Below are positions 4,517 to 33,775 of a DNA stretch of 64,000 bases, piece after piece. Made by a program: the position numbers and the translations under genes. This DNA is from Alphaproteobacteria bacterium (GTDB lineage: Bacteria > Pseudomonadota > Alphaproteobacteria > MPNO01), in contig CBDFLJ010000001.1 in NCBI GenBank assembly GCA_965248835.1, positions 448,001-512,000 of the forward strand, written 5' to 3'. Numbering within the stretch: position 1 is the stretch's first letter; each line of letters starts with the position of its first letter. A model generated the notes under the pieces. That model was not told where the DNA came from. It saw only the letters and a list, made by a program, of their open reading frames with translations, and did not search any database.

Positions 4517-6124
4517 ATGACCTATCCCGACCTGCGCGCCTATCTCGAGGAGCTCGACCGGCGCGCGCTGTTGCACGTTGTCGACGTGCCGGTCAACAAG
4601 GATACCGAGCTGGTCCCGCTGGTCCGGCTCCAGTTCCGCGGCCTGGCGGAGCCCGACCGCAAGGCGTTCTGGTTCCGCAACGTCACCGATGCGCGGGGCC
4701 GCAGCTTCGACGGCTCGGTCGTGCTTGGCGCGCTCGGCAGCTCGCGGACGATCTATGGCGCCGCCCTCGGGATCGCACCGAAAGAGATCGGACAGACCTG
4801 GGCCGCGGCCCACGGCAACCACCTCAGCCCGGTGCGGGTGCCGCGCGCGGCGGCCCCCGTGAAGGAGGTCACGGTTTCCGCGCCGAATCTCGGCCAGGGC
4901 GTCGACCGCTTCCCGCATCTGATCTCGACGCCGGGCTTCGATCCGGCGCCGTTCATCACCGCGGGCGTCTGGGTGACCCGCGACCCGGAGACCGGCACGG
5001 CCAATCTGGGTATCTATCGCGGGATGATCAAGGCGCCCGACCGGGTCGGCTGCGCGACCGACGTGTCGACCCAGCATCTTGCGATCCAGTGGGAGAAGGC
5101 CAGACGGCTGGGCCGGCACCTCGAGGTCGCGGTGTTCATCGGCGGCCCGCCGGCCTTGTTGCTGGCCGCGGCCTCCAAGGTGCCGTACGGCGTCGACGAG
5201 TACGGCCTCGCCGGCGCGCTCAACCGCGCCGCAATCGAGGTCACCGAAGCGGAGACCGTCGACCTCTTGGTCCCAGCCGCGGCCGAGATTGTCCTGGAGG
5301 GCCGCGTCCGCACCGATATTCTGGAGCCGGAGGCACCGTTCGGCGAGGCGAGCGGATATCTCGGCCCGCGCAAGATGGAGAAGGTCTTCGAGGTCGGCGC
5401 CATCACCCACCGCCGGGCGCCGATCTACCAGGGGATCATCAGCGAGTTCCCGCCGTCGGAGAGCACCGTGATCCGCAAGGCGGCCTTCGATGCGGTCTAT
5501 CTGCGCCATCTCAAGGAGGCCTGCAACATCCCATCGGTCAGCAAGGTCGCCTGCCACGAAATGGCGAGCTGCAACATGCTGTTCGTCATCCAGCTCGACC
5601 GGCCCGAGCTCGGCCAGCCATGGCAGGCCCTGCGGGCGGCGGCGGCCTTCGATGCCTCGCTCGGCAAGATGTTCATCGCCGTCGATGCCGATGTCGACCC
5701 CGACTCGATGGACGCGGTCCTGTGGGCGCTGTCCTACAGCATGCAGCCGCACCGCGACGCCGAGATCATTCGCGGCAAGGTGCCCCGGCTCGACCCGTCG
5801 ATCACGCCCTCGGACGATGCCCGCCAGTTTGCCTATCCGGATGGCTCGGGCGCATCCGCGATCCTGATCAACGCCTGCCGCGAACACCCCTATCTGCCGG
5901 TCTCGCTGCCGCGGCAGGATTTCATGGAAGCGGCCAAGGCGCGCTGGGAGGCGCTCGGGCTGCCAGCGCTGGACCTTGGCGCGCCGTGGTACGGTTATCC
6001 GCTGAGCGCGTGGACTGAGGAAAACGCCGACGAAGCCGAGCGCGCGGTCACCGGACGATATTTCGAGACGGGCGAAAAGCTTGCGGGCCGACGCCAAAGC
6101 ACCGACTCAACAGCGTCGGAATGA
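4517..6124 (+). CDS. UbiD-family prenylated-FMN decarboxylase
   Basis: YPDLRAYLEEL start, NLGIYRG, AEIVLEG, EAPFGEASGY, AVDADVDP. Confidence 0.92.
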   Translation: MTYPDLRAYLEELDRRALLHVVDVPVNKDTELVPLVRLQFRGLAEPDRKAFWFRNVTDARGRSFDGSVVLGALGSSRTIYGAALGIAPKEIGQTWAAAHGNHLSPVRVPRAAAPVKEVTVSAPNLGQGVDRFPHLISTPGFDPAPFITAGVWVTRDPETGTANLGIYRGMIKAPDRVGCATDVSTQHLAIQWEKARRLGRHLEVAVFIGGPPALLLAAASKVPYGVDEYGLAGALNRAAIEVTEAETVDLLVPAAAEIVLEGRVRTDILEPEAPFGEASGYLGPRKMEKVFEVGAITHRRAPIYQGIISEFPPSESTVIRKAAFDAVYLRHLKEACNIPSVSKVACHEMASCNMLFVIQLDRPELGQPWQALRAAAAFDASLGKMFIAVDADVDPDSMDAVLWALSYSMQPHRDAEIIRGKVPRLDPSITPSDDARQFAYPDGSGASAILINACREHPYLPVSLPRQDFMEAAKARWEALGLPALDLGAPWYGYPLSAWTEENADEAERAVTGRYFETGEKLAGRRQSTDSTASE

Positions 6125-6135
6125 AAGGCGCAAAA

Positions 6136-6209
6136 GAATCCACAGATTATCCACAGAAAAGAATGCAATGAGGTAAAATATTCAGAGAATATCCACATAA
6201 ATGTCCACA
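6136..6209 (+). promoter_or_regulatory. Cluster of four co-oriented DnaA-box-like 9-mers in an AT-rich patch
   Basis: GAATCCACA 6136-6144, perfect TTATCCACA 6147-6155, ATATCCACA 6189-6197, ATGTCCACA 6201-6209. Confidence 0.6.
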
Positions 6210-6269
6210 ATAAATTTTTCTCCGGCGCATTTTTTCTTGGCGGACTAGCGGAAATGTAAGAGTATTCAA

Positions 6270-6469
6270 TCGTGGAAACGCGGTCTTCGGATCGGGTGAC
6301 CATAGGCCCCGGAAGGGACGGGGTTCCTGGAAGCGGCGGTGAGCGGTCTTCGGAGCGCGCGCCAAAGGGACCGGAAGCCTCGGGTCGGAAAGGGTCTGGA
6401 GACGTCAGGAGCGTTCTTCGGAGCGCGTTGCGAGGGCCCCGCGTCCAAGCACCTGGCGTCTCTTTTATT
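6270..6469 (+). ncRNA. Candidate structured sRNA with three GCG(G/T)TCTTCGGA modules and an intrinsic terminator
   Basis: Modules at 6280-6291, 6343-6354, 6411-6422; closing stem GAGACGTCAGG (6399-6409) / CCTGGCGTCTC (6452-6462) followed by TTTTATT; no credible ORF; 5' end approximate. Confidence 0.55.
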
Positions 6470-6552
6470 GTGCCGGGCGCATGTCCCGGACAAGCCGGAG
6501 CGGTCCGCCGCCCCCGGCGACCCCGCCTCGAGATATCCCGCATCCACCACTG

Positions 6553-6584
6553 AAAAGGCCCGGCACCCCTGGCACCGAGCCTTT
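6553..6584 (-). terminator. Intrinsic terminator
   Basis: Minus strand AAAGGCTCGGTGCC-AGG-GGTGCCGGGCCTTTT. Confidence 0.7.
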
Positions 6585-6621
6585 CCGGTCAGTATCGGAC
6601 CCGCGTCCATCGCACTTGGCG
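6553..6621 (-). ncRNA. Candidate ~70-nt sRNA, partly complementary to the neighbouring plus-strand RNA
   Basis: Sigma70-like promoter immediately upstream; terminator hairpin at 6553-6584 with G-U pairs that form only on the minus strand. Confidence 0.55.
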
Positions 6622-6626
6622 GGCTC

Positions 6627-6655
6627 TGCATACCAGACACGCCGAATCGGGTCAA
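6627..6655 (-). promoter_or_regulatory. Sigma70-type promoter
   Basis: Minus strand TTGACC-17 nt-TATGCA. Confidence 0.6.
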
Positions 6656-6700
6656 CCATATGTTGGGGTACATCAAACAATAACCTGCCAAATGTTGTAA
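6653..6700. promoter_or_regulatory. Tandem NrdR-like boxes
   Basis: Minus strand CCCCAACATATGGTTG (6653-6668) and TTACAACATTTGGCAG (6685-6700), 32 bp apart; resemble the consensus acaCwAtATaTwGtg and its usual 31-32 bp tandem spacing. Confidence 0.65.
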
Positions 6701-6921: not shown

Positions 6922-7392
6922 ATGGCCGAAAAACTGGGTATCGGGGATTCGTTCCCAAAGCTCCAGCTCTCCCTGGTCGGCGGTGGAACGCTCGACCTGC
7001 CGGATGGGCTGGACTCGCGCTACAAGGTGATCCTGTTCTACAGGGGCCACTGGTGACCCTTTTGCCGCCGGCAGTTGGCCGGCTTCGCAGAACACAAAGC
7101 CGCACTTGAGAAACTGGGGATCAAGGTGGTCGCGGCCAGCATCGATGCGCCCGACAAGGCCAAGGAGTTCGCCGAGGAGGTGCCCTTCCCCGTCGGCCAC
7201 AGCGTAAGCCGGCAGACGGCCGATGCGCTGGGCTCGTTCTGGGAAGACCGGCGCGGGCTGATCCAGCCGTCGGAGTTCATCCTGGACAGCGAGAACAAGG
7301 TCGTCGCCTCCTCCTACAGCGACGGCCCACTCGGGCGAATCGAAGGAGCCGATGTCGTCAAGCTGGTGAACTTCTACGACTCTCGAAAGTAG
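6922..7392 (+). CDS. AhpC/TSA (peroxiredoxin-like redoxin) selenoprotein with in-frame UGA at 7054-7056
   Basis: GGAGG RBS; the two track ORFs (ending 7056, starting 7075) share a frame and join as ...VILFYRGHW-U-PFCRRQL..., where the family has WCPxC; hairpin directly 3' of the UGA. Confidence 0.88.
7057..7092 (+). promoter_or_regulatory. Bacterial SECIS-like hairpin
   Basis: GCCGGC (7067-7072) loop AGTTG GCCGGC (7078-7083); lower stem TTTTGC/GCAGAA; loop starts 16 nt after the UGA with G in second position. Confidence 0.7.
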
Positions 7393-33322: not shown

Positions 33323-33391
33323 TCTTGACGGCAAGCCGGGATATCCAAGTAGAGAAGCGGCGCTATTAGGCGTCAGACCGGGAGGGGCAGA

Positions 33392-33775
<384 letters not shown>

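Follow-up and report, generated by a model that had tools for sequence, protein, structure and literature searches.

A convergent pair of RNA genes between DnaA-like and NrdR-like boxes in an alphaproteobacterium, with conserved complementarity to a terminator domain

Can two short, convergent transcription units in one intergenic region form an RNA/anti-RNA pair, and what could such a pair do between boxes that resemble DnaA and NrdR binding sites? This question was raised by an initial annotation, made from the sequence alone, of positions 6136-6700 in a window of 64,000 nucleotides (nt) (contig CBDFLJ010000001.1, positions 448,001 to 512,000 of the forward strand) of Alphaproteobacteria bacterium GCA_965248835.1, whose genome of 4.9 Mb is 100% complete by markers. 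The annotation had described a plus-strand element, a minus-strand unit and a segment shared by the two, and its coordinates for all three parts were correct. The region is flanked by a UbiD-family gene (4517-6124, +) and an AhpC/TSA-like gene (from 6922, +), and it holds a large modular RNA and a small RNA which, as read from the sequence, is an imperfect antisense copy of the 3' domain of the large one in which one helix (H1) is skipped. The arrangement suggests that the start of replication and the supply of DNA precursors are linked by RNA in a way not yet described. Window coordinates are used throughout; G, L and C denote genomes, loci and contigs, g3 and g6 are genera, and G000 is the genome of the window.

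Structure, pairing and distribution of the two RNAs

The structured plus-strand element of about 200 nt with a terminal stem and T-tract, which the annotation had proposed, is present at about 6272-6469 and has comparative support for its structure. Its 3' domain consists of a 12-base-pair (bp) outer stem (6398-6409 with 6452-6462), the helix H1 (6411-6426) and the helix H2 (6434-6446, loop 6438-6442), where H2 has a C-rich loop and is enclosed by a short stem, and a U-tract (6463-6469) follows directly after the outer stem. In an alignment of 22 diverse sequences, 98.7% of the cells of this domain were paired, and changes on both sides of a pair were found in 31 cells against 9.3 +/- 4.6 in shuffles, with none of 500 shuffles as high, while just 34-55% of the cells paired when the partner columns were slid by 1-3 positions. 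Most of this covariation sits in H1, and the outer stem has A-U/G-U and G-C/A-U alternations that are compatible with the plus strand only.

The 5' part of the large RNA is modular: in each unit an outer stem leads through a purine-rich internal loop to a short stem with a UUCG loop. Three UUCG loops are present in the large RNA of the window genome (6286-6289, 6349-6352 and 6417-6420), and a strict count gave 0-10 modules per large RNA across loci. The large RNAs at L063/L065, L104, L101 and L077 carry 6-10 near-identical tandem modules of about 40 nt each, and the same unit is present just two or three times in the window genome. Our guess is that the modules titrate some factor. A Csr-like sponge was considered for this role and rejected, because the sequence is GGA-rich but the loops are UUCG and PF02599 (CsrA) was not found in the genome. 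Among the large-RNA homologues, conservation of a start codon with a ribosome-binding site was not seen. One genome (G127) holds three copies of the 3' domain (L103, L113 and C198:2637-2727) with a small RNA beside the L113 copy only, and L103 has a compensated A-U change in H2.

The minus-strand unit was borne out in all its parts, that is, the promoter TTGACC-N17-TATGCA, a predicted start near 6621 and its own terminator, whose G-U pairs fit the minus strand alone. The fold of the single small-RNA sequence was better than shuffles (z -2.85), its 5' region is conserved with an invariant seed, and its terminator is variable with compensation. The two genes are convergent and leave a gap of 82 nt between their 3' ends (6469 and 6552), so the transcripts do not overlap as those of a cis-antisense pair do.

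The shared segment (6435-6458 and 6597-6621) reads as the annotation had written it, and its two copies stand as direct repeats at a distance of about 160 bp. In the whole genome, the pattern CCGCGTCC-N1-4-GCACYTGG has exactly two matches, namely the sites in the large and the small RNA; among the 16 family genomes that carry it, it was found exactly twice in 10, once in 3 and three or four times in 3, and the matches common to family genomes are the two units, the extra ones not being shared between genomes. The pairing that had been proposed with the loop and the 3' arm corresponds to what we call helix A, in which the 5' end of the small RNA can pair with the loop and the 3' arm of H2 and with part of the 3' arm of the outer stem. 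Helix A was counted in 24 unique cognate pairs, anchored on the invariant core and extended without gaps, and each of the nine core positions was paired in 22-24 of the 24. Changes from C-G to U-A were found at offset -2 (5 pairs), -1 (L105) and +6 (L104), and a G-U pair stands at +3 in three lineages.

In a second helix, B, the 5' arm of the outer stem (6404-6408) would pair with a box of the small RNA (6592-6588) that follows the seed and precedes the terminator. Its 6-bp core was paired in 21-24 of the 24 cognate pairs, with compensatory changes at -1 (L045/L099), +3 (L046/L095 and L112) and -4 (L112); a further +3 change in L105, which was mis-anchored in the table, was judged by eye. The duplex energy of the cognate pairs was -31 to -53 kcal/mol in all 24, and in a first set of 17 pairs it gave z values of -3.7 to -8.3 against shuffled seeds. 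For the pair of the window itself, the predicted gain of the dimer over the two RNAs folded apart was -14.1 kcal/mol compared with -5.1 +/- 2.3 for shuffled heads, which none of 200 equalled, and the outer stem was lost in this predicted dimer. Loss of the complementarity among homologues, which the annotation had taken as a sign of chance local duplication, was not seen: it is kept in 24 of 24 unique pairs, with compensatory changes in both helices, as expected of an RNA and its anti-RNA, and the duplex prediction for which the annotation had asked agrees with this. Because helices A and B cover both arms of the terminator stem, pairing would open it, as had also been proposed, and the outcome may then be decay, antitermination or sponging. 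Helix B, the modular architecture and the spread beyond one family were missed in the initial annotation.

The spread was followed by searches of DNA and of covariance models. A DNA search covered 40 relatives: of the 19 that belong to the same family, 16 gave a match to the region, and the 21 that represent other families of the order gave none. In G005, one of the 16, the match was confined to the repeat-like stretch of the gap, and neither RNA was present. Covariance models were built for the small RNA (R1), the 3' domain of the large RNA (R2) and a broader small RNA (R3). R1 matched 16 of the 19 family genomes, which became 15 after a bare terminator without seed in G010 was set aside, and R2 matched the same 15, so that 15 family genomes have both RNAs, 4 have neither and none has a single one. 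The four without either RNA are 97-100% complete and include one of the window's genus and one of g6. In genus g3 the two genes are 1.1-2.3 kilobases (kb) apart with one gene between them, and the copies still match.

Outside the family, R2 was found in 20 of 77 other genomes of the order and in 10 of 150 families of an even sample of the other families of the class. R3 gave 14 matches in the class sample, and in 5 of the 150 the match had seed and boxes and always lay next to the large RNA in convergent orientation; the other 9 were rejected as plain terminators without seed. Thus the two units, for which a check across Alphaproteobacteria had been suggested, are conserved together in 15 of 19 family genomes and in 5 of 150 class families. 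An exact-pattern scan of named genomes returned 24 loci, 22 of them real and from Defluviicoccus, Rhodospirillales, Kiloniellales and unclassified alphaproteobacterial metagenome-assembled genomes, mostly of uncultured lineages. The matches in Sphingomonas and Reyranella lie inside reading frames and have no U-tract, and were rejected as chance. A metagenome scan added 25 further loci, and matches such as L080, L087 and L093, among others, were dropped as chance since they have no T-rich tail.

Boxes at the two promoters

NrdR is a repressor dedicated to ribonucleotide-reductase genes, and DnaA is an initiator and a transcription factor. Genome-wide, 834 DnaA-like motifs were found, and 6136-6209 is the only cluster of at least three within 120 bp; here four lie in 74 bp, the close grouping of several 9-mers that marks a DnaA-box cluster. 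As the sole such cluster in the genome, the DnaA-like boxes of the annotation stand out statistically, and DnaA may bind to them. DnaA-box-like clusters are also visible upstream of homologous large RNAs in other lineages, including distant ones, and a strict pattern (background 0.045 per 150 nt) found at least two boxes in 14 of 40 unique loci and at least three in 4, several of the loci being incomplete. An origin of replication at the locus was rejected, since neither dnaA nor hemE is close by: in three complete relatives the distance is 90-945 kb to dnaA and 350-670 kb to hemE, and in G150 both genes are far away too; GC skew was uninformative on the position of the origin. G014 gave about 60 identical weak matches to the DnaA ATPase model in frames of 339 amino acids, as if an insertion sequence with an IstB-like ATPase had multiplied strongly there.

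On the other side of the locus, the two NrdR-like boxes are 32 bp apart from start to start with a spacer of 16 bp, and the proximal one overlaps the -35 element of the small-RNA promoter. NrdR itself is encoded in the genome (TIGR00244, 176.3 bits against a cut-off of 124.65, C2:1164938), and tandem boxes are present upstream of one of the two genes for the large subunit of ribonucleotide reductase (C2:34685). A position matrix was trained solely on the reductase upstream regions of the 19 family genomes and used to scan both strands of the genome. The reductase promoter ranked first (42.7), the site C1:441831-441876 second (26.3) and the small-RNA promoter third (25.7). With this third rank genome-wide, the tandem NrdR-like boxes of the annotation stand out as well, and binding of NrdR is predicted from the sequence. 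The second-ranked site lies about 6 kb before the start of the window and about 12 kb from the RNA locus, and in six genomes of g6 (G007, G009, G011, G012, G015 and G018) the NrdR-controlled reductase gene is 25-43 kb from the RNA locus, a loose synteny. The layout with paired 16-bp boxes, about 15-16 bp apart and overlapping a promoter, is that of NrdR-regulon promoters: an excerpt of PMC12051234 describes NrdR operators as pairs of 16-bp boxes, commonly with a spacer of 15-16 bp and about three helical turns between the centres, which NrdR binds when loaded with adenosine triphosphate plus deoxyadenosine triphosphate (dATP).

One locus has a different design. At L106 (G078:C2, downstream of 124286), where a separate small-RNA gene is lacking, a tandem NrdR-like site (score 22.1) and promoter-like sequence point straight at the large RNA's 3' end, so the layout is directly antisense and looks like a cis-antisense version of the pair. 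This antisense layout with an NrdR-like site points to the same regulatory logic.

What the pairing may do

On balance we think it probable, by a small measure, that an NrdR-derepressed anti-RNA opens, and thereby inactivates or destabilises, a DnaA-linked modular RNA; conservation, co-occurrence, structure, compensated complementarity and motif statistics are shown, whereas we infer that DnaA and NrdR bind, that the small RNA is expressed, what pairing leads to and what the modules do. The large RNA would be transcribed from a promoter behind the four DnaA boxes. The -35 element of the small RNA is inside the tandem NrdR operator, and therefore the small RNA is expected on release of NrdR, that is, it would be made when NrdR leaves its operator as dATP becomes scarce. 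The 5' end of the small RNA would then clamp the H2 loop and 3' arm together with the 3' arm of the outer stem (helix A), the second box would clamp the 5' arm (helix B), and the clamp on both arms would unzip the terminator domain. The large RNA would be inactivated or destabilised, for example by an exposed 3' end or as a substrate of a double-strand ribonuclease (RNase), and a low supply of deoxynucleoside triphosphates (dNTP) would override the DnaA-linked RNA signal. A bolder extension, which we regard as doubtful, is a riboregulatory replication checkpoint, in which the UUCG/GA-loop modules of a DnaA-activated large RNA hold a factor that replication or cell-cycle progress needs or is restrained by, and the NrdR-derepressed anti-RNA dismantles the large RNA at dNTP shortage. 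If this were true, one locus would compute "ready to initiate AND enough building blocks", and the DnaA and NrdR regulons would both have their first small RNA (sRNA) as an output.

Several observations weigh against an NrdR-derepressed anti-RNA. A consensus promoter/terminator scan flagged no promoter or terminator of either RNA, and only 14 of the 40 loci have at least two strict DnaA boxes upstream. Against 5000 random 120-nt windows, the NrdR score of the homologous small-RNA promoters was above the 99.9th percentile in 20 of 22 and above the 99th in all 22, but the genome is GC-rich, so this background favours AT-rich promoters. In 11 of 12 loci with a large RNA only, the twelfth being L106, no NrdR site was found within 300 nt, and therefore the large RNA can work without the partner and should have a role of its own. 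The fold of the single large-RNA sequence was not better than shuffles (z -1.15), and support for its structure comes from the comparison across sequences, through paired cells and double changes. Helix A has an A-A mismatch in L045, a G-A mismatch in L112 and a register shift in L105, and helix B has just 5 bp in the window genome (6-9 bp in relatives). In a first cognate test with 17 close pairs, cognate and non-cognate pairs were equal (p = 0.23); with 24 pairs including distant lineages, the cognate energy was -44.5 compared with -41.6 for non-cognate pairs and 5 of 100,000 permutations were as low (p = 5e-5), a figure that is an indication and not a probability because kin sequences are not independent. 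As to expression, five sequencing runs are listed with one RNA library among them, and runs X1-X3 probably come from the source DNA sample and are not independent. The RNA library gave a single matching contig of 157 nt with 3 differences, wholly within the large RNA (6279-6435), which is a weak hint of large-RNA expression; the contig is shallow (depth 3.4), could derive from DNA and shows no ends or strand, and this one RNA run had no cover of the small RNA or the flanks.

It is unlikely in our judgement that the direction is the reverse, with the small RNA as a seed-type trans regulator of messenger RNAs (mRNAs) and the large RNA as a decoy that sets a DnaA-dependent threshold for an NrdR-controlled response. 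The small RNA is indeed built like a seed-type sRNA, with an invariant 5' region and a variable terminator, the large RNA has one site irrespective of the number of modules, and a run of 13 contiguous bases immediately before the start codon of a class II-like reductase gene (C1:836045-836080) is complementary to the seed. However, the 3 other genomes that have both the small RNA and this reductase gene have not preserved the site, and a search of the 12 genomes of g6 did not find the gene. The confinement of the site pattern to the two units in 10 of 16 family genomes, with unshared extras in three others, and the fact that the small RNA copies the two terminator-stem arms, when a decoy site would require less, also speak against this reading. 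Energy-based scans for mRNA targets were uninformative on the GC-rich background, where even the large-RNA site fell outside the top 40, and for the reductase and dnaA leaders as targets the duplex energy was not above background. A candidate seed site in a coding region was recorded at C2:1840184. The joint coverage of both arms of the sole terminator stem, the convergent genes with their 82-nt gap and the directly antisense, NrdR-controlled promoter at L106 would also agree with a co-transcriptional action, in which the small RNA binds the nascent 5' arm and H2, the terminator does not form, and read-through across the small-RNA gene makes a long antisense transcript, with interference and a feedback switch. 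We hold this to be improbable: to outcompete a GC-rich stem of 12 bp, an RNA that acts in trans has to be plentiful and bind quickly, and the 1.1-2.3 kb with an intervening gene in g3 make interference by read-through unlikely there.

That there is no RNA-RNA interaction at all, the matching segments being a local DNA duplication whose copies gene conversion keeps similar, or sites for a single DNA-binding protein, and the box cluster a DnaA-titrating locus with incidental transcripts, is in our view very improbable. The segments are direct repeats, most positions are invariant so that much of the "pairing" is merely conservation, and the only DnaA-box cluster of the genome lies far from dnaA and hemE. 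Against this, the copies differ stably at internal-loop positions while paired positions change together, a G/A difference between the DNA copies is a G-U pair in RNA in three lineages, helix B, which is not part of the repeat first seen, covaries too, the copies in g3 are 1-2 kb apart and still match, and the stems have strand-specific G-U pairs. Hardly credible is a pair like a type I toxin-antitoxin system, with a toxic peptide from the large RNA and the small RNA as antitoxin. Adjacent, non-overlapping antitoxin RNAs have a layout that resembles this pair, and a mechanical open reading frame spans 6272-6553, but this frame reads through the terminator, the number of modules varies from 0 to 10 with insertions and deletions that are not multiples of three, no frame or toxin reading frame is conserved, and variation tracks base-pair covariation and not codons.

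Features of the locus and known systems

The features of the locus are collected in Table 1. A stretch within the gap between the RNA genes (6471-6511) resembles C1:1652157, C1:697295 and C1:1628893 with 91-93% identity over 27-33 bases, and looks like a small dispersed repeat. The neighbouring AhpC/TSA-family gene (6922-7392, +; 77.5 bits) has an in-frame TGA (7054-7056) at the position of the active-site cysteine (HW-TGA-PFC) and a GC-rich hairpin a few bases 3' of it, and the genome encodes the selenocysteine transfer RNA (tRNA-Sec, C1:1184331) and SelA (C1:1179081); it is probably a selenoprotein peroxiredoxin and not a broken gene. Elsewhere in the window, a bacterial RNase P RNA of class A was found at 33390-33773 (-) with 289 bits.

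Table 1 Coordinates of the predicted features of the RNA locus
Feature	Position	Strand	Basis or remark
Four DnaA-box-like 9-mers	6136-6144, 6147-6155, 6189-6197, 6201-6209	+ (single orientation)	AT-rich, upstream of the large-RNA promoter
Putative large-RNA promoter	-35 TTGGCG 6237-6242, 17-nt spacer, -10 GAGTAT 6260-6265	+	Sequence reading; position kept in alignment
Large modular RNA, about 198 nt	about 6272-6469	+	5' part with UUCG hairpins, conserved 3' domain; homologues, plus-strand G-U pairs
Large-RNA 3' domain	6398-6469	+	RNAalifold and pair counts, 22 sequences
Helix A site on large RNA	6438-6458	+	H2 loop, H2 3' arm, part of outer-stem 3' arm
Helix B site on large RNA	6404-6408	+	Outer-stem 5' arm
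Small RNA, about 70 nt	about 6621-6552	-	Helix A partner 6621-6597, helix B partner 6592-6588, terminator 6586-6553
Small-RNA promoter	-35 TTGACC 6655-6650, 17-nt spacer, -10 TATGCA 6632-6627	-	TTGAC kept in aligned promoters
Tandem NrdR-like boxes	6653-6668 and 6685-6700	.	Proximal box overlaps the small-RNA -35

Several known systems share some of these features. Sponge RNAs such as the Caulobacter sponge and that of RosA/RoxS reportedly titrate a partner sRNA by a site that mimics its target; sponges are generally encoded away from their sRNA, whereas here the pair is adjacent and accompanied by NrdR-like and DnaA-like boxes. RNAs of the CsrB/RsmZ type have a variable number of repeated, GGA-rich hairpin modules that sequester a protein, and the large RNA is like them in its repeated modules and GGA-rich sequence but unlike them in that its loops are UUCG and not GGA. 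The datA and DARS loci of E. coli are intergenic DnaA-box clusters away from the origin, whereas the cluster here immediately precedes the promoter of a structured RNA that is conserved.

In working principle the pair is nearest to sRNA sponges and to two sRNA pairs, StsR/UpsM and CJnc180/CJnc190. For StsR/UpsM of Rhodobacter sphaeroides, an excerpt of PMC8266604 describes that an sRNA binds an abundant terminated sRNA and alters its conformation and fate. Both would be cases of an alphaproteobacterial sRNA that acts on another sRNA, and in that excerpt theirs links growth control to an environmental signal. There, UpsM is the product of partial termination in a 5' untranslated region and StsR is driven by RpoHI/HII, as far as the excerpt goes, whereas here two stand-alone genes converge, the input would come through DnaA-like and NrdR-like boxes, the terminator stem would be clamped on both arms, and no relation in sequence or in Rfam was found. 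In Campylobacter jejuni, one of the neighbouring sRNAs CJnc180 and CJnc190 antagonises the other by means of extended complementarity, and RNase III acts on their duplex (PMC8687705, in excerpt). Their genes overlap and are cis-encoded according to the same excerpt, whereas here the genes do not overlap and an imperfect copy would be kept by selection, L106 alone looking cis-antisense.

A search of Rfam 15 found nothing on 6136-6700 at the gathering score or up to E = 10, the RNase P RNA being the only match in the window, and it gave no matches on 13 homologous loci, so the comparison with Rfam proposed in the annotation leaves the pair without a described family. In the papers found, no sRNA driven by NrdR or DnaA boxes is described, and sRNA lists in supplements could hold members. 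What is new here is two undescribed RNA families with unusual regulatory inputs and a two-helix clamp on a terminator, and the pair is a member of none of the compared systems.

Since 10 of the 150 alphaproteobacterial families in the sample have it, the large RNA is more than a peculiarity of a single organism. The double clamp on the terminator stem and the variable number of modules give testable handles on the mechanism, and an RNA pair wired to NrdR and DnaA would add a new layer to the coupling of replication initiation to dNTP supply.

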